This document shows, piece after piece, positions 1 to 43,947 of a stretch of DNA of 64,000 bases (the first letter of the stretch is position 1; each line of letters begins with the position of its first letter). The DNA lies in sequence record NC_014467.1, one strand, 5' to 3'. This DNA is from Escherichia phage RB16. Made by a program: the position numbers and the translations under genes. The notes under the pieces were generated by a model. It was not told the origin of the DNA, did not search any database, and saw only the letters and a program-made list of their open reading frames with translations.

Positions 1-146
1 AGTTGCAGAACGTAGGGGTTCCGGTTATTATCGACCCTACTGATGTACGAGATCCAGACTTTGCTATAGAAAGCGGACGACTGGACTATGTAATAAATGC
101 CGAAACAATGATCATGGAGATCACTTACTATGACCGAGCAGCATGA
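1..146 (+). CDS. 3' end of an upstream gene (partial, C-terminal ~48 codons)
   Basis: Frame open from window edge to TGA at 144-146; no start codon in window. Confidence 0.35.
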   Translation, partial: LQNVGVPVIIDPTDVRDPDFAIESGRLDYVINAETMIMEITYYDRAA

Positions 147-477
147 AGTATTAGACGAAGTGGCGCACGAGAAAACAGCAACAGAACTTCGTGAAGAAGA
201 ACTGGAATCCCTGAAAGGTACGCGTGTTGAACAGGAAGCGCTAAGCAAAGCACAGAAGTATATGCGAAAGAACCGCGCTGAATGGAAACGACTTCACAAA
301 CACGCAGAAAATGCCCTGTTTGATGGTAACAAAGCACAGTATGTGTACGCTATCAAAAAGATGCGTGATATGCTTAAACAGCCATACAACGATGAACTGA
401 TTGAAACGATGTGGATCACTTCAAATCAACAGCTTAAAGATCTATTCGTAATGGCTTCCGAAAAATACGGCAAATAA
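130..477 (+). CDS. hypothetical protein (115 aa)
   Basis: ORF track; followed by GC hairpin with UUCG loop. Confidence 0.55.
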   Translation: MTEQHEVLDEVAHEKTATELREEELESLKGTRVEQEALSKAQKYMRKNRAEWKRLHKHAENALFDGNKAQYVYAIKKMRDMLKQPYNDELIETMWITSNQQLKDLFVMASEKYGK

Positions 478-496
478 ACCCCTTCGGGGGTTTTGA
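478..496 (+). terminator. rho-independent terminator-like hairpin (ACCCC-TTCG-GGGGT + T-run)
   Basis: Read directly: aaccccttcgggggtttt. Confidence 0.55.
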
Positions 497-503
497 GGTA
501 TAT

Positions 504-1523
504 ATGAATTATGTGTTAATTGGCGATACACATGCAGGTCTTCGCCAGGATAACCCCTGGAACGAAGATAACCTGTATGAAGTATTCAAACAGATAGTAG
601 CGTATTGCAAAGAACATGGGATCACTCGCGGTTTCCATGCGGGTGATTTCTTTGATGTTCGAAAAGCAACCACGCAGACAACGATGAATTTCGTTCGTGA
701 AAAGCTGGTTCCTCTTCTGACTGAGGCTGGGATCGTTATCGATACTTTGGTTGGCAACCACGATTGCCAATTTAAAGACAAAATCCGGCCCAACGCGCCG
801 CGCGAGATACTCAGTCAGTATGAATGCTTTAATGTCATCGACGAACCGACCACAGTCGATTTAGGCGGTGGAAAATCGATTGACCTGATCCCGTGGATTT
901 GTCAGGAAAACAGTCATAGGATTTTCGAGTTTATCAAACAGTCAAAATCAAATTTCTGTCTGGGACACTTCGAACTTTCTGGTTACTATTTCTACAAAAA
1001 CAGTAAAGCGGATCACGGGCTTGAACCGGACTTCTTGAAAAAGTATGAACGCGTTTACTCTGGACACTATCACCATGCAAACGAAGGTGATAACGTGTTT
1101 TACATCGGTACACCGCTTACTATGAGCGCCAACGATGAAGACGAAACACGCGGGTTTTATGTGTTCACTGGTACGCCTGAATTAACGTTCATCGCTAACC
1201 CTGTCTGTCATCATCGCCGGATTTCATACCCAGCGCAGAAAGATGTTGATCTTGAACAATTCCGTAACTGTGCGGTACGTCTGATCGTCAGTGAGGTTGA
1301 TTCAAACCTTGCCAAGTTCCAAACCAAAATTGAAGAAATCGCCTACGAAATCAGTATCATTGACAACGTGAAAACTGATTCTGATGTGGATACCGATTTC
1401 GAAATTAAAACGGTTCGTGGGCTTATGGGTGAGTATGTCGCAAACATGCAGATCACCGATGACGAAAAAGAAGACGTTAATCGTATGATTAGCGAACTTT
1501 ACGCCGAGGTGTCTGGTGCATAG
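504..1523 (+). CDS. 47: recombination endonuclease subunit gp47 (Mre11-like metallophosphatase)
   Basis: 339 aa, same length as T4 gp47; GDTHAG and GNHD phosphoesterase motifs; aligns by eye to T4 gp47. Confidence 0.9.
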   Translation: MNYVLIGDTHAGLRQDNPWNEDNLYEVFKQIVAYCKEHGITRGFHAGDFFDVRKATTQTTMNFVREKLVPLLTEAGIVIDTLVGNHDCQFKDKIRPNAPREILSQYECFNVIDEPTTVDLGGGKSIDLIPWICQENSHRIFEFIKQSKSNFCLGHFELSGYYFYKNSKADHGLEPDFLKKYERVYSGHYHHANEGDNVFYIGTPLTMSANDEDETRGFYVFTGTPELTFIANPVCHHRRISYPAQKDVDLEQFRNCAVRLIVSEVDSNLAKFQTKIEEIAYEISIIDNVKTDSDVDTDFEIKTVRGLMGEYVANMQITDDEKEDVNRMISELYAEVSGA

Positions 1524-7629: not shown

Positions 7630-8484
7630 ATGAAACAATATCTTGATATCGTCAACACCGTTCTAACACACGGTACTGAATCAACCGATCGTACTGGTGT
7701 TGGTACATTGCGCATCTTCGGGATGCAAGCACGTTGGAACCTCGCAGAAGGTTTCCCAGCGACTACCAGCAAACAGCTATTCTTCAAACCGTGTAAGCAT
7801 GAATTACAATGGTTCCTCGAAGGTTCTACCAACGTGGAAACACTGCGTAAAATGACGTGGGGTGAAGATAGCGATAAGCGGACGATCTGGGACGATAACT
7901 ACGAAAATCAGGCTAAAGCGCTGGGTTATACGCATGGTTATCTGGGACCGATCTACGGGCATCAATGGCGCTCATTTGGTGCGGAAGGTTCATTCAGTGG
8001 TGTTGACCAGATTGCTCGAATCGTCAAAGAACTGAAAGAAAAACCAGACGATCGCGGGATCATCGTTTCCGCCTGGAACCCTGTTGATCTTGATGATATG
8101 GCTTTGCGTCCGTGTCACTGTTTCTTCCAGTTCGTCGTAATCAACGGTAAACTGTCTCTACAGTGGTATCAGCGTTCAGTTGATGTCTTCTTAGGGTTGC
8201 CGTTCAATATCGCCTCCTACGCTCTCCTGACGCATATTATCGCTGATATTTGCGGGTATGAAGTGGGTGATCTGGTTTGGACTGGTGGCGATGTCCATAT
8301 CTACAAAAACGCAGTAGAACAAGCGAAAGAGTTGTTGAAGCCGGAACGCGCACCGCTTCCACTTCCGACCCTTTATATGCCGAAGGTAAATAGCTTACTT
8401 GATTTGGATCAAGAATTCTTTGACTCCATCCATTTGAAAGACTATAATCACCACGGCTCGCTAAAAGCAGCTATGGCAGTATAA
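7630..8484 (+). CDS. td: thymidylate synthase (uninterrupted, no intron)
   Basis: 284 aa; conserved TS motifs (DRTGVGT, WNPVD, PCH, SVDVFLGLPFNIASYALL); continuous ORF. Confidence 0.9.
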   Translation: MKQYLDIVNTVLTHGTESTDRTGVGTLRIFGMQARWNLAEGFPATTSKQLFFKPCKHELQWFLEGSTNVETLRKMTWGEDSDKRTIWDDNYENQAKALGYTHGYLGPIYGHQWRSFGAEGSFSGVDQIARIVKELKEKPDDRGIIVSAWNPVDLDDMALRPCHCFFQFVVINGKLSLQWYQRSVDVFLGLPFNIASYALLTHIIADICGYEVGDLVWTGGDVHIYKNAVEQAKELLKPERAPLPLPTLYMPKVNSLLDLDQEFFDSIHLKDYNHHGSLKAAMAV

Positions 8485-17780: not shown

Positions 17781-17857
17781 GGCCCTTTAGCTTAATTGGT
17801 TAGAGCGGGTGACTCATAATCGCGCGGTTGCTGGTTCGAATCCAGCAGGGGCCACCA
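17781..17857 (+). tRNA. tRNA with CAU anticodon (Met or lysidine-Ile)
   Basis: Cloverleaf folded by hand: acceptor GGCCCTT/AGGGGCC, D-arm, anticodon loop CTCATAA, T-arm GCTGG-TTCGAAT-CCAGC, encoded CCA. Confidence 0.75.
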
Positions 17858-17862
17858 AATAC

Positions 17863-17938
17863 GCAGGTGTAGTTCAATTGGTAGAATATCTGGTTTCCAT
17901 CCAGATTGTTGAGGGTTCGAGTCCCTTCACCTGCTCCA
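17863..17938 (+). tRNA. tRNA-Gly (UCC anticodon)
   Basis: Acceptor GCAGGTG/CACCTGC, anticodon stem TCTGG/CCAGA with loop TTTCCAT, T-loop TTCGAGT, encoded CCA. Confidence 0.8.
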
Positions 17939-18087
17939 ATTCGGGTGCGTAGCGCAATGCCGTTAAATGGTTCGGAATATGCAACCTTATCGTATGCGAT
18001 AGGCTCTGTTGGTATCCGGTAATAGGTTCCCCGGAATGCGGGGTGAAGTAAAGAAACTTCCAGCCCACAAATTTAAAAGAGAAAAAT

Positions 18088-40319: not shown

Positions 40320-40751
40320 TTACGAAGATGCAAACACTTTTTTGAAGAATTTTGTTTCCGGTCTTTCTTTGTATGGACGCATGGTCAATTCTTTACCATC
40401 CAACACAATTGGTTCTCCGTTCAGTTCGATCAGGATAAAGTTGCCTTTGCGATACTTCAACACACCCTGGCTTGCCGACCATTCATCATTATCCCAGTGG
40501 TTATAATGCCACTCAACAACGGTATCGATTGGTATTTCTGGTTGATTTCTCATAGCTTTCCTTCGTTCTGATGCTTCTTTCAATTGTCGTATTTGTGGGA
40601 TCAACTGTTGTGGTGGAACAGTATCTGCTTGTTTCAGTGCCTTTCGAGCTTGTTCAACAAACCATTCATATTTCGGACGGTGTTTAAGTTGTTCACGCAG
40701 TCGGGCATTCTCTTGTTCGGCAATACTTGCACGTTTTCTATAATCAGTCAT
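40320..40751 (-). CDS. hypothetical protein (~143 aa)
   Basis: Start at MTDYRK after GAGG RBS. Confidence 0.45.
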   Translation of the reverse strand: MTDYRKRASIAEQENARLREQLKHRPKYEWFVEQARKALKQADTVPPQQLIPQIRQLKEASERRKAMRNQPEIPIDTVVEWHYNHWDNDEWSASQGVLKYRKGNFILIELNGEPIVLDGKELTMRPYKERPETKFFKKVFASS

Positions 40752-40758
40752 ATAAACC

Positions 40759-41013
40759 TCAAAAAATATGCGTAAGGTTTCCGGCGTTGTTCGGGTATTC
40801 CACGTAATCGCCACGGAATATGTTTAGATCGGAATCGAACTTAAATCCTTGACCCCTGACATCCTCATGACGGGAAATATAAGAACATCCGTACTTTTGT
40901 AGATCTTCCATGTACATTTCAGTGATGCGTTTTGCTTTGTCCATTCCCCGACCTTCAAATCGGGAACGGCGATAATGTTCCAGCAAAAACGCATATAACT
41001 TTTCGTATGTCAC
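40759..41013 (-). CDS. hypothetical protein (84 aa)
   Basis: ORF track. Confidence 0.4.
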   Translation of the reverse strand: MTYEKLYAFLLEHYRRSRFEGRGMDKAKRITEMYMEDLQKYGCSYISRHEDVRGQGFKFDSDLNIFRGDYVEYPNNAGNLTHIF

Positions 41014-41918
41014 AGAACTTTCCTTATCTGTTTGGCTATTGCCTCGATAACTGGCACGGAAACGGAGTTACCCGCTTGCTTGTATGCTTGTTTTTTACTC
41101 GATGGAATAATAAACGAATCTGGGAAGCCTTGCAAGCGAAAACATTCACGCGGGGTTAATCGTCGTGGGTTCTTCCCGTCCTGCAACACCAGACATTGAA
41201 CGCCGTCCTTGTAATATTGCGCGGTGATGGTTCCTGTGTGCGTAGAATCGGCTGTGACGGCCTGATAACCAAAGCCCTTACCGTTTGCCTTATTTCGTTC
41301 CTTACGCTCTCTAAAGCCTTTCCACGCGTTATCTGATAGAGTGTACGAATCATCAGCATCTTCGAGGATATCACCTACGCGCGTAGGGGTACGCGGGGGA
41401 ACCGGAAACGAAAAGAATACATCATCCAGGAAGCAGACAATGAACACGCGTTCACGTCGCTGGGGTAGTCCGAAATCTTTTGTATTCAGTCGCTGATAGA
41501 ATACGTTGTATCCTTCGGCCTCAAGAAGCCCGTAAATCGTTTTAAACGTCTTTCCCTTGTCATGGGTTAGCAATTCAGGCACGTTCTCAAAGAACAGCAC
41601 ACGGGGCTTTTTAGCGCGTATGATGCGGAGGATTTCAAAGAACACCGTACCGCGAGCATCATCAAATCCCAGTTTCAATCCGGCTTTACTGAATGCCTGA
41701 CACGGGAACCCAGCCAACAGGATATCGTGATCGGGTACTTTGTTTTCATCAATGGCAAACAGATCACCCTGTAGGTTATCGTCGCCCCAGTTTTCAATAT
41801 AGGTTTGCTGTGCGTGTTTGTCGATCTCAGACGTTAAAAGGCATTCGACCCCGCCGAATGCATTATCAAATCCAAATCGAACTCCACCAACGCCAGCGCA
41901 GAGGTCAATTATTTTCAT
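41010..41918 (-). CDS. DNA (cytosine-5)-methyltransferase
   Basis: Motif I DLCAGVGG, motif IV GFPCQAFS, ENV motif. Confidence 0.85.
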   Translation of the reverse strand: MKIIDLCAGVGGVRFGFDNAFGGVECLLTSEIDKHAQQTYIENWGDDNLQGDLFAIDENKVPDHDILLAGFPCQAFSKAGLKLGFDDARGTVFFEILRIIRAKKPRVLFFENVPELLTHDKGKTFKTIYGLLEAEGYNVFYQRLNTKDFGLPQRRERVFIVCFLDDVFFSFPVPPRTPTRVGDILEDADDSYTLSDNAWKGFRERKERNKANGKGFGYQAVTADSTHTGTITAQYYKDGVQCLVLQDGKNPRRLTPRECFRLQGFPDSFIIPSSKKQAYKQAGNSVSVPVIEAIAKQIRKVL

Positions 41919-42178
41919 GCGTCGAAATCTATCTCGTCAATTTTGTAAGACTGTTCATCGATATCAGCCCACAGGGTGACTTTAACCGTTTTGCGGTCTT
42001 CGTACATGTCACGACCATCATAGCCGCCTACGTATTCGCTGTGCGTCTGTTCATCCACTTCCAAACGCAGACTATCGCGCATGATTTGGACAACAGCCTG
42101 TTCCATCGTAACAGAATCTGGGTGTTGTTCTGTGCCACCAACTCGAACATCTTTCAGGTGTAAAATAATATCAGACAT
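41915..42178 (-). CDS. hypothetical acidic protein (87 aa)
   Basis: ORF track. Confidence 0.4.
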   Translation of the reverse strand: MSDIILHLKDVRVGGTEQHPDSVTMEQAVVQIMRDSLRLEVDEQTHSEYVGGYDGRDMYEDRKTVKVTLWADIDEQSYKIDEIDFDA

Positions 42179-42447: not shown

Positions 42448-43442
42448 TTGTAATACCTCATAACATGATCTTTGTACACGAGTTCAATGAAGTTATCCCA
42501 GAACTCGCGATCGACTTCTTTCGGATAGGTAGAGATTGCAGCCAGGCGTTCAACTTCACCCATCACTTCCTCCAGTTTTTCCTGTACTTCGGCAAACGGG
42601 ACATTACCAGCTTTAACCGATTTCAACAGGTCACTCTCAGGAAGAGGATAAACGATATCACCGTGCTTGTAAATCTGTACCAACTGCATACCGCCGCGCA
42701 ATGCGTGACTTAATGCTTTCCAATCGATCCCATTGTTGGCTTCTGCTTGTCGTGCGCGTTCGCCATATTCATCCCAGAGCTTATACACGGATTTCTTCAT
42801 TTCCGCTACGGTGATTGTGAACTGGAATTTACGACCCAGAACTTCGTAGAAATTCTGCATACCACCTTTTTCGCTATAATGCAAAATAGAACGACAGAAT
42901 TCATTGGTCGGTAGTTGGTCTTTGATGTCGCCAACTTTGGTATTAACCAACGATGAAGCGTTTTCATCGTAATGTGCATTATCGGTGTCTTGCAACACGT
43001 CATACACTTCACGCAATGCAGCCAGGCGTGAACCCTTAACGCCATATTTCGCGGCTTGCTTACGAACATAACCGAACAGACCAGTTAACTCCGTGGTGTA
43101 GAAACGCCAGCGGTTAGCGCGGATATACTGCCAGATTTCAGAGTTAGCGATCAGCTTGCTATCATCAGCATGAAGCATATCGAGCGCTACGGTATCACCA
43201 TCACACGCAAGGCTGATGAACTTAGGCAGACTATACAACTGACGGTCTACGTCATCAACGGTGTTTTTAGAGTTCTTATCGCCCGTGCTCGTGTCGATGG
43301 TCTTTGGGGCTTTACCCAGTAAGATATCGCGTGGATGCGGGAGAAAGATCCCTTTATAATCTTTGTCGCTTGTCGGGGTGTTCAGTCCGTACAAAAAACT
43401 TCCAAACACCATTTCAACTACGGTTTTCATAAAATTCTCCAA
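42444..43442 (-). CDS. Pol-beta-superfamily nucleotidyltransferase (GS-x10-DxD), 332 aa
   Basis: N-terminal FGSFLYGLNTPTSDKDYKGIF matches the minimal nucleotidyltransferase signature. Confidence 0.6.
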   Translation of the reverse strand: MENFMKTVVEMVFGSFLYGLNTPTSDKDYKGIFLPHPRDILLGKAPKTIDTSTGDKNSKNTVDDVDRQLYSLPKFISLACDGDTVALDMLHADDSKLIANSEIWQYIRANRWRFYTTELTGLFGYVRKQAAKYGVKGSRLAALREVYDVLQDTDNAHYDENASSLVNTKVGDIKDQLPTNEFCRSILHYSEKGGMQNFYEVLGRKFQFTITVAEMKKSVYKLWDEYGERARQAEANNGIDWKALSHALRGGMQLVQIYKHGDIVYPLPESDLLKSVKAGNVPFAEVQEKLEEVMGEVERLAAISTYPKEVDREFWDNFIELVYKDHVMRYYK

Positions 43443-43947
43443 ATAATTCTTTCGCTTTCGCTTCGTATACTACACTAGCTTCTTCTGGCGTGGCAAACCT
43501 ACCCAAAAACATATCTTTGCGGTTATGTTTGATTTTAGCTATCCATTTATCACGAGCATTGTCGAAATAGACCCCCTTATAGCCAGATTTATTGGTTTTC
43601 GGAGTTTTTGCTTTCATCGTGTTCTGCTGTTGCGTTACTTCCTGTAGGTTATCTTTGCCATTACCGTTCCCGACCCCGCGTTTATGGTCAACGATAGCGG
43701 GAAGATACCCGTTAGCAACATAGAAAACAATTCGATGAACATAGTACGACTTGCCGTTATATCCTATTGCAGTGTATCCAAATGAATTCGTACTACCCGC
43801 AATACTTCCTACTGTAGCCCTACTACCCCTGTGAACTTTCCAATAACACAACCCTGTGTCAACATCAACCCGAAGAATTTCTAACAATGAATCTATTTCG
43901 CTGCGTTCATCTTCTAGCGTTCTTTTCCACCGTCCGTGGCATTTCAT
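43414..43947 (-). CDS. HNH-AP2 homing endonuclease (paralog 5)
   Basis: HNH motif (VDHKRGVGNGNGKDNL...QQQN) + AP2-like (YKGVYFDNARDKWIAKI). Confidence 0.8.
   Translation of the reverse strand: MKCHGRWKRTLEDERSEIDSLLEILRVDVDTGLCYWKVHRGSRATVGSIAGSTNSFGYTAIGYNGKSYYVHRIVFYVANGYLPAIVDHKRGVGNGNGKDNLQEVTQQQNTMKAKTPKTNKSGYKGVYFDNARDKWIAKIKHNRKDMFLGRFATPEEASVVYEAKAKELFGEFYENRS

Follow-up and report, generated by a model that had tools for sequence, protein, structure and literature searches.

A solitary C5-cytosine methyltransferase gene with an SsoII/Ecl18kI/NlaX-class recognition domain in the RB43-type phage RB16

Escherichia phage RB16 encodes what we take to be a solitary C5-cytosine DNA methyltransferase (MTase), built like M.NlaX from a single catalytic domain and carrying an SsoII-type target-recognition domain (TRD), which would methylate CCNGG, or at least the CCWGG subset, and thereby guard the phage against restriction; we give this reading a probability of about 0.8. 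The gene lies in a 64,000-nucleotide stretch of record NC_014467.1, hereafter the window, and its features are collected in Table 1. The enzyme itself is already known: a 2006 paper described its RB43 orthologue, RB43ORF127c, as a C5 methylase (PMC1524935), and the "Dcm" of KP15 and KP27 was discussed in 2013, for KP15 alongside virion DNA resistant to EcoRII, and again in 2016 (PMC3620542, PMC5219037); a Pseudotevenvirus paper makes no mention of methyltransferases (PMC11687723). Finding it here is thus correct but ordinary, the pairing of cytosine DNA with a self-encoded C5 methylase having been in the literature since 2006-2010. The one loose end of some interest is an asymmetry between CCWGG and CCSGG words, which bears either on the true specificity of the enzyme or on selection by type IV restriction.

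The gene, its family and its phage relatives

The window is collinear with coliphage RB43 from 33.4 to 98 kb at 80-97% nucleotide identity, and T4 gp46 and gp47 match it at 44% identity; the T4-like backbone proposed by the initial annotation is thereby confirmed, and the phage is of the RB43 or "pseudo-T-even" type. Orthologues of the MTase occur at 84-97% amino acid identity in ~170 T4-like phages of Klebsiella, Enterobacter, Cronobacter, Citrobacter and Escherichia. The window protein is 96% identical to RB43ORF127c and to GuL6_128 (GuL6 being the closest relative by nucleotide identity), 97% to its counterparts in GAP161 and BHU20 and 85% to that of KP15; all are 302-307 aa long, differ only by point changes and occupy the same slot, between small hypothetical ORFs and nrdC.11. 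A plus-strand ORF resembling a tail-needle knob, RB43ORF128w, stands directly upstream in RB43 and GuL6 but is missing from the window.

A single ATG-to-stop frame on the minus strand fills the interval of the gene exactly. It matches Pfam PF00145 with E=1.1e-93 and 314.7 bits (cutoff 22), residues 1-299 of 302 covering profile positions 1-323 of 324, and the TIGR00675 "dcm" model with E=1.9e-96 and 323.5 bits (cutoff 100.65). Its top match in the PDB is the crystallised M.HhaI, which aligns with residues 2-298 (E=1e-63, 40% identity). A family match of this kind is far beyond chance, and the predicted product is a complete, stand-alone C5 DNA methyltransferase whose motifs are intact; its activity we infer from that integrity. 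The motifs follow the canonical order in the M.HhaI alignment, I to VIII, then the TRD, then IX and X, so that the full set of C5-MTase motifs claimed at the outset is indeed present.

Table 1. Predicted features of the methyltransferase gene, with positions in the window
Feature	Position	Strand	Basis
Orphan DNA cytosine-5 methyltransferase, predicted complete CDS (302 aa + stop)	41010..41918	minus	PF00145, TIGR00675 and M.HhaI matches; RB43ORF127c orthologue
ATGA overlap, stop of upstream ORF 41915..42178 with MTase start codon	41915..41918	minus	Direct sequence reading
Motif I, DLCAGVGG, residues 5-12, AdoMet-binding loop	41883..41906	minus	Aligned to HhaI DLFAGLGG
Motif IV, GFPCQAFS, residues 70-77	41688..41711	minus	Aligned to HhaI GFPCQAFS, which holds the catalytic cysteine
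Motif VI, ENV, residues 111-113	41580..41588	minus	Aligned to HhaI ENV; E111, N112, V113 invariant
Motif VIII, QRRERVF, residues 153-159	41442..41462	minus	Aligned to HhaI QKRERIY; Q153, R155, R157 invariant
TRD, residues ~169-250, SsoII/Ecl18kI/NlaX type, includes NGKGFGYQAVTADSTHTGTITAQYYKDGVQCLVLQ	41169..41414	minus	TRD-only search, identities
Motif IX, RRLTPRECFRLQGFP, residues 252-266 (RRLTPRE = 252-258)	41121..41165	minus	R252, P256, R257, E258, R261, G264 invariant
Motif X, GNSVSVPV, residues 283-290	41049..41072	minus	G283, N284, S285, V286 invariant
GTGA overlap, MTase stop with start of downstream ORF 40759..41013	41010..41013	minus	Sequence

Invariant residues, here and in Table 1, were read from an alignment of phage, SsoII-type, Dcm and HhaI sequences. 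They comprise D5, L6, A8, G9, G11 and G12 in motif I and G70, F71, P72 and C73 in motif IV, Cys73 being the predicted catalytic nucleophile: by the chemistry standard for the family, it would attack a flipped-out cytosine at C6, and C5 would receive a methyl group from AdoMet. Set against the FxGxG-like form of motif I, the phage protein has Cys for Phe at the first position and retains the glycines.

Around nrdC.11 and tk, small minus-strand genes are closely packed into a block to which the MTase gene belongs and with which it would be transcribed; the ATGA overlap at its start points to translational coupling inside that block. We read the timing of its expression from gene position only; a scan of 39-47 kb for promoters and terminators gave chance results (23 promoter-like sites vs 18 +/- 3.9, and 7 terminator-like sites vs 7.7 expected), and the T4 late-promoter motif TATAAATA was absent within 38-48 kb.

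Target recognition and the CCWGG/CCSGG asymmetry

The initial annotation called the target specificity unknown. It can now be narrowed to a TRD class, that of SsoII, Ecl18kI and NlaX, whose target is CCNGG, while word statistics would fit either CCNGG or CCWGG alone. The phage TRD is 55% identical to that of M.Ecl18kI, 65% to that of the SsoII-like protein P0117 and 56% to that of the NlaX-like P0046, as against 28% for Dcm and 21% for HhaI, and its core has the same length as in the SsoII-type enzymes. P0117 is a 61%-identical MTase homologue with a helix-turn-helix (HTH) domain, its gene flanked by vsr and by a gene for an EcoRII-C-family nuclease. Over the whole protein, identity to the authentic M.Ecl18kI encoded on pECL18 is 54%, the locus having been verified through its published operator, AGGACAAATTGTCCT, and Met56 (PMC3978073). 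When the TRD alone was searched against the PDB with phmmer, Dcm was the sole match and HhaI did not appear at E<=10. Although HhaI is the top PDB match of the full protein, its GCGC is not the predicted target, because the two TRDs are unrelated; GCGC words, moreover, stand at an observed/expected ratio (O/E) of 0.92-0.95, and we reject an HhaI-like target.

Comparison with characterised enzymes points the same way. The closest are M.SsoII, M.Ecl18kI and M.Kpn2kI of plasmid restriction-modification (R-M) systems, which produce C5mCNGG, are 54% identical to the phage enzyme overall and 55% in the TRD, and share with the phage clade an Enterobacteriaceae host range; they come with an HTH regulator domain of 71 residues at the N-terminus, an operator and a divergent nuclease partner, whereas the phage enzyme has none of the three. 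Its sequence begins four residues before motif I and has no HTH domain, which gives it the architecture of M.NlaX from Neisseria lactamica (CCNGG), likewise a catalytic domain only, of ~300-313 aa, and termed "a natural delta(1-71) M.SsoII" (PMC3978073); M.NlaX is bacterial and chromosomal, the present enzyme phage-borne. This comparison was made with NlaX-like metagenomic proteins standing in for the NlaX sequence. The nearest cellular homologues found, labelled "nlaX" at their source, show ~60% identity to the phage protein and 67% to M.Ecl18kI. E. coli Dcm and M.EcoRII (C5mCWGG) belong to the same broad TRD class, GxGFGY...T(I/L)(S/T)A(R/Q)YYKDG, and methylate the position predicted for the phage enzyme, but Dcm is only 44% identical to it overall and has an N-terminal extension of ~85 aa, two insertions and a vsr partner, all lacking here; against the Dcm model NF007772 the ORF scores 200.8 bits, well short of the cutoff of 710, which places it outside that family. 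M.HhaI, the structural archetype, shares the catalytic core end to end and has an unrelated TRD. In CCNGG, it is the inner C that both M.SsoII and M.NlaX modify (PMC3978073), and we predict the same target and position for the phage enzyme, the acceptance of any central base being drawn from homology.

The genomes do not treat the two halves of CCNGG alike. Across the window, RB43 and BHU20, CCWGG is retained (O/E 0.71-0.77), whereas CCSGG is purged about 8-fold, to 0.12, 0.12 and 0.10, respectively, which is unexpected if the MTase protects those sites. Five CCSGG words stand in the window, at 18030, 30304, 30949, 46136 and 61309. RB49, a cytosine-DNA T4-like coliphage in which tblastn detects no homologue of the MTase gene, depletes both classes alike (0.38 for CCWGG and 0.39 for CCSGG), so that CCSGG is more depleted in the MTase-bearing phages than in RB49, and in lambda, T5 and T4 it is not depleted at all (0.88-1.02). 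Host Dcm, as a sufficient cause of CCWGG retention, is weakened by RB49, also a coliphage, which depletes CCWGG. The pattern would fit either (i) protection limited to CCWGG or (ii) a cost of methylated CCSGG.

The first of these possibilities amounts to a rival description of the enzyme, which would have the same role but act in vivo on CCWGG only, unprotected CCSGG having been removed by selection. The word counts just given speak for it, as do clade-specific substitutions in the phage TRD, TITAQYYKDGVQCLV vs TISARYYKDGSEILI in the alignment, which include an Arg-to-Gln change in the conserved SARYYKDG motif and could alter the reading of the central base. Yet the TRD is far closer to those of CCNGG enzymes (55-65%) than to that of Dcm, the Dcm insertions are missing, the excess of CCSGG depletion over RB49 could equally be the price of methylating CCSGG, and the statistical contrast sets one clade against one clade; we therefore regard restriction of the target to CCWGG as somewhat unlikely. 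As an account of the asymmetry itself, we tentatively suggest, at rather less than even odds, that either a CCNGG-type TRD has been narrowed to CCWGG by a few clade-specific substitutions or methylated CCSGG is counter-selected by McrA-like restriction. McrA targets Y5mCGR, a sequence that C5mCGGG fits. If the TRD has been narrowed, these phages would give natural access to the way in which TRDs of this class recognise the central base pair; if CCSGG is methylated and selected against, they would exemplify a phage genome reshaped by side-effects of its own methyltransferase.

Cytosine DNA, orphan status and probable role

C5 methylation requires ordinary cytosine, and the evidence supports its use by this phage in place of hydroxymethylcytosine (hmC). 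As the initial annotation had stated, the window holds no dCMP hydroxymethylase: the only match to T4 gp42 (23% identity, 7684-8304) falls in ORF 7630..8484, which we reject as a hydroxymethylase since it encodes a 284-aa thymidylate synthase (NCBIfam TIGR03284, 305 bits), flanked by frd and nrdA in an arrangement shared with T4 and RB43. T4 alpha-gt and beta-gt gave no tblastn match in the window, RB43 or BHU20, and nothing occupies the alpha-gt slot, which the window includes (1..1514) and which a-gt.4 and gene 47 delimit. The genome-wide search for gene 42 and glucosyltransferases proposed earlier was run on the relatives: the complete RB43 and BHU20 genomes lack gp42, alpha-gt and beta-gt, gp42 again matching thymidylate synthase only; 13-14 further T4 genes of replication and recombination, taken as controls, were detected in these genomes. 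In RB43, uvsX abuts gene 43, at the place where T4 has beta-gt/42/imm; because the uvsX-43 slot of the present genome lies outside the window, its lack of gp42 is presumed from these relatives. Published surveys also describe RB43-type phages as devoid of the hmC gene set (PMC2993671, PMC8056088, PMC12115623). The earlier proposal of ordinary cytosine thus finds support in the empty slot, the two relatives and the surveys.

Retention of denA and gene 56 by RB43-type phages despite their cytosine DNA has a bearing on function, for methylation might serve the economy of phage DNA, for example by shielding it from the phage's own DenA (EndoII) or by marking phage vs host DNA, as has been speculated (PMC8056088). 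We consider such a role improbable: with ~320 short palindromes in 180 kb, a genome cannot be shielded from a nuclease that prefers a different, longer site, denA and 56 are kept in RB49 without any C5-MTase, the nearest relatives of the enzyme are R-M methylases, and the word statistics follow restriction-enzyme sites.

The surroundings of the gene suggest that the predicted enzyme stands alone. Its flanking ORFs, of 84-143 aa, match no credible nuclease or other curated family in NCBIfam, PHROGs or Pfam (E<=0.1), and neither vsr nor an EcoRII-C-type partner of 305-309 aa is found beside it, whereas an adjacent EcoRII-C-fold nuclease accompanies P0117, M.Ecl18kI and M.Kpn2kI. An HNH-AP2 homing endonuclease (43414..43947), which varies between relatives, is the one nuclease in the vicinity. 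In the absence of the nuclease that would pair it into a type II R-M system, the enzyme is an orphan and, therefore, most likely serves in anti-restriction. That it might instead be the M half of a phage-borne R-M or exclusion module, one of the small neighbours acting as nuclease, is suggested by the EcoRII-C nuclease and Vsr partners of its close bacterial homologues and by the lack of assigned functions next door; we think this very improbable, because those neighbours have 84-143 aa, fall below threshold for every nuclease family searched and differ among the window, RB43 and GuL6, in all of which the MTase stays constant. An inactive relic or a Dnmt2-like RNA methylase, for which nothing specific speaks beyond the weak PDB matches to DNMT2 that all family members show, is scarcely credible given catalytic residues that are all intact, strong purifying conservation (84-97% at the amino acid level across ~170 phage genomes that span 66-97% nucleotide divergence) and E values of 1e-63 to 1e-115 to DNA MTases vs 8e-12 to DNMT2.

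We posit, then, that the solitary CCNGG-type enzyme modifies phage DNA of ordinary cytosine once it has been replicated, yielding C(5mC)NGG, at least in the CCWGG subset, at ~105 sites in the window and ~320 per genome. Methylation of the inner C would block restriction enzymes of the EcoRII type (CCWGG) and of the SsoII/Ecl18kI/Kpn2kI type (CCNGG), which are borne by small mobilisable plasmids in the same genera that the phage clade infects; SsoII-type R-M plasmids were the best plasmid matches, with hosts in Shigella, Escherichia, Klebsiella, Salmonella and Enterobacter. Anti-restriction self-methylation, put forward by the initial annotation, stays the likeliest role, and the retention of CCWGG, a word that RB49 depletes, speaks for it. 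Our literature search found no study that examined the methylome or the restriction of RB43-type DNA directly; in KP15 DNA, however, none of 279 EcoRII sites was cut, and EcoRII resistance was seen in the same study in a phage without any C-MTase (PMC3620542). The KP15 result is an experimental hint of activity, confounded by host Dcm. Lacking an hmC pathway, the phage would rely on this MTase, on Dam, which RB43-type phages also carry, and on wholesale purging of other restriction sites. T4 Dam, an orphan phage N6-adenine MTase for GATC, offers a functional analogue, although it differs in fold class, base and target.

RB43-type phages are therapy candidates against Klebsiella, Enterobacter and Cronobacter, and the predicted modification has practical consequences. 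Virion DNA should carry 5mC at ~0.8% of cytosines, a value derived from site counts and G+C content assuming that every CCNGG site is methylated at its two inner cytosines. Enzymes of the EcoRII and SsoII types should fail to cut such DNA, which may be a target of methyl-dependent systems, and the expected 5mC would affect cloning as well as nanopore and bisulfite analyses.

The methylase and its recognition domain

The C5-cytosine methyltransferase (MTase) that the initial annotation described, with all canonical motifs, is correctly placed: one 302-codon ORF (ATG start, TGA stop) matches the TIGR00675 profile (E=1.9e-96), and crystallized M.HhaI aligns with residues 2-298 (E=1e-63). When phage orthologs, SsoII-type enzymes, E. 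coli Dcm and M.HhaI are aligned with it, the invariant positions comprise the glycines of motif I (DLCAGVGG), Pro72-Cys73 of motif IV (GFPCQAFS), Glu111-Asn112-Val113 (VI), Gln153/Arg155/Arg157 (VIII), Arg252/Pro256-Arg257-Glu258 (IX) and Gly283-Asn284-Ser285-Val286 (X); the stretch separating motifs VIII and IX is variable. M.HhaI is the best PDB match solely through the conserved core, and a PDB search with the variable region alone returned Dcm only (E=1e-5), not M.HhaI.

From sequence comparison we assign the target-recognition domain (TRD, residues 169-250) to the SsoII/NlaX class rather than to that of HhaI or Dcm, with C(5mC)NGG as the predicted product. TRD identity is 55% to M.Ecl18kI (target CCNGG), 65% to the SsoII-like P0117 (classed by SsoII-type architecture and gene context, with an EcoRII-C-family nuclease gene and vsr flanking its gene) and 56% to the NlaX-like P0046 ("nlaX" being a database label), versus 28% to Dcm (CCWGG) and 21% to M.HhaI (GCGC). 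The best plasmid matches, at 54.4% identity over the whole protein, lie on mobilizable 4-5.6 kb pECL18, pKPN2 and Shigella, Escherichia and Salmonella relatives. On pECL18 the operator AGGACAAATTGTCCT separates the R gene from the M gene and residue 56 of the methylase is Met, both as published (PMC3978073), which verifies the locus as the authentic Ecl18kI system. CCNGG is methylated at its second cytosine by M.SsoII and M.Ecl18kI, a specificity shared by the single-domain M.NlaX (PMC3978073). The phage MTase lacks both the HTH domain of SsoII/Ecl18kI and the two insertions of Dcm; its architecture is NlaX-like.

An RB43-type genome, probably with ordinary cytosine

Around the MTase gene, 3.5 kb match Buttiauxella phage GuL6 at 94% identity and coliphage RB43 at 92.5%; the 33.4-98 kb region of RB43 is collinear with the entire window. 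This collinearity and the matches to T4 gp46 and gp47 at 44% identity make the RB16 window that of an RB43-type (Pseudotevenvirus-like) T4 relative, bearing out the T4-like backbone proposed earlier. The MTase gene belongs to a tightly packed block of small minus-strand ORFs adjoining nrdC.11 and overlaps both neighbors, its start codon with the stop before it (ATGA) and its stop with the next start downstream (GTGA). Orthologs are 96% identical in RB43 (RB43ORF127c) and GuL6 (GuL6_128); tblastn finds the MTase in ~170 T4-like phages of Klebsiella, Enterobacter, Cronobacter, Citrobacter, Raoultella and Escherichia at 84-97% amino acid identity (85% in KP15). The gene itself is ordinary and already known: the RB43 genome paper (PMC1524935) listed the ortholog as a C5 methylase, and dozens of GenBank records annotate the gene likewise; what we add is the TRD assignment and an unexplained asymmetry in word usage. 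In Klebsiella phage CPRSB the methylase is annotated as two CDS and matches in two pieces; this may be a natural frameshift or knock-out, which would offer a useful strain for comparison, or an error in sequencing.

Ordinary cytosine rather than hydroxymethyl-C (hmC), as initially suggested, is supported on several lines. The sole T4 gp42 match in the window (23% identity) is ruled out as a dCMP hydroxymethylase: NCBIfam identifies it as a thymidylate synthase, and it is flanked by frd and nrdA as td is in T4. Neither alpha- nor beta-glucosyltransferase is matched in the window, where the T4 alpha-gt slot (a-gt.4 to gene 47) is empty; the beta-gt/42/imm slot (uvsX to gene 43) falls ~10 kb beyond it, and in RB43 gene 43 directly abuts uvsX. 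The proposed genome-wide search, run by tblastn on complete RB43 and BHU20, another RB43-type relative, found no gp42 apart from td and no alpha-gt or beta-gt, while control genes 56, dam, 61, 41, uvsX, 43, regA, 62, 44, 45, 46, 47 and 55 were all recovered. Published surveys are in accord: T-even, JS98, RB69, CC31, Acinetobacter and 44RR-type phages are the only carriers of gene 42, denB and alc (PMC2993671), and no non-canonical-base genes are known from phages of the RB43 or RB49 type (PMC8056088; PMC12115623). Ordinary-cytosine DNA in RB43-type phages is established knowledge.

Word usage and the role of the methylase

Observed/expected (O/E) counts of CCWGG and CCSGG (W, A/T; S, G/C) from maximal-order Markov expectations, both strands
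Genome	CCWGG	CCSGG
Window	0.71 (100 sites)	0.12 (5 sites, 42 expected)
RB43	0.77 (305 sites)	0.12 (14 sites, 116 expected)
BHU20	0.73	0.10
RB49	0.38	0.39
Lambda, T5, T4	0.59-0.81	0.88-1.02

The CCWGG/CCSGG asymmetry is common to the window, RB43 and BHU20 and absent from RB49 (a T4-like cytosine-DNA coliphage), T5, lambda and T4. Avoidance of restriction sites is strong and affects many of them in RB43-type genomes: NcoI (CCATGG) and SphI (GCATGC) sites are missing from all three sequences, and HindIII (AAGCTT) sites from the window and BHU20, with one in RB43; 7-14 of each are expected in the window. GGWCC O/E is 0.08-0.31 across RB43-type genomes (window, 0.13) and GGCC ~0.5 (0.49), with GGSCC at 1.15 in the window. 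RB49 purges the same 6-mers and additionally lacks EcoRI sites and GGSCC; distinct T4-like cytosine-DNA clades purge distinct sets of restriction sites. RB49 has no homolog of the MTase gene, tblastn at E<=10 returning only noise.

We posit that this solitary AdoMet-dependent methylase would be expressed from the nrdC.11-tk block, which in T4 is pre-replicative; we infer the timing, on which a promoter scan was uninformative. The inner cytosine of CCNGG, or CCWGG, would be flipped and methylated via Cys73, making progeny DNA refractory to nucleases of the EcoRII and SsoII/Ecl18kI/Kpn2kI types, which occur on small plasmids in exactly the host genera of the MTase-bearing clade. The enzyme would thereby supplement Dam and site avoidance in a lineage devoid of hmC and glucosylation defense. 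A protective methylase would predict the milder CCWGG depletion of the clade that carries it; severe CCSGG depletion is not expected under a simple CCNGG model. The CCSGG purge may fit (i) specificity, and protection, for CCWGG only in vivo or (ii) a liability of methylated CCSGG, the contrast being of one clade with one clade and not deciding between them. McrA targets Y5mCGR, which C5mCGGG would fit.

Besides CCWGG-only specificity, one rival reading is a role for the MTase against the phage's own DenA. A concealed restriction-modification pair is another, but profile searches matched the flanking ORFs to no nuclease or curated family, so the MTase is an orphan. The last, an inactive relic, stands beside an intact ORF with every motif. 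KP15 virion DNA, in which 0/279 EcoRII sites were cut, a result its authors credit to a phage "Dcm", is consistent with protective methylation but not decisive, since a siphovirus lacking a cytosine methylase is likewise resistant through host Dcm (PMC3620542). A literature search found no methylome of an RB43-type phage.

Coordinates of features
Feature	Location	Strand
C5 MTase	window 41010..41918	-
ATGA overlap at MTase start	window 41915..41918	
ORF next to MTase	window 40759..41013	
164-aa GTG ORF (Met22 at 40751)	window 40320..40814	-
Homing-endonuclease ORF	window 43414..43947	-
Thymidylate synthase	window 7630..8484	
tRNA-Met(CAT), tRNA-Gly(TCC)	window 17781..17938	+
All CCSGG sites	window 18030, 30304, 30949, 46136, 61309	
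Tail-needle-knob ORF, RB43ORF128w	L001:7688-8389	+
Tail-needle-knob ORF, GuL6_129	L002:4940-5641	+
RB43 amino-MTase-like ORF030c	L009:18258-18992	
RB43 dam	L012:3259-4110	
CPRSB split methylase	OM971649.1 107825-108732	

Three DNA methyltransferases are encoded in RB43-type genomes: the C5 enzyme, Dam and a small protein resembling amino-MTases. The RB43 genes for the latter two correspond to no position within the window; RB49 has three non-C5 genes (p143, p189 and dam). In RB43 and GuL6 a 233-aa ORF bearing an Sf6-type tail-needle-knob domain (PF16532, E=9e-35) separates the methylase from its upstream neighbor, a late-type insertion on the opposite strand that is odd in a block of early genes; it is wholly absent from the window, where the two minus-strand genes share the ATGA overlap. 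An HNH_3 and AP2 homing-endonuclease ORF (PHROG 99, E=5e-58) abutting or overlapping the nrdC.11 5' end has no counterpart at this position in RB43, which differs from the window over 43.4-45.8 kb, and is probably a mobile endonuclease insertion. The PHROG match of the GTG ORF begins at Met22, probably its true start, which abolishes the overlap with ORF 40759..41013. Where the window has two adjacent tRNA genes, RB43 is annotated with a single tRNA, called Ile.
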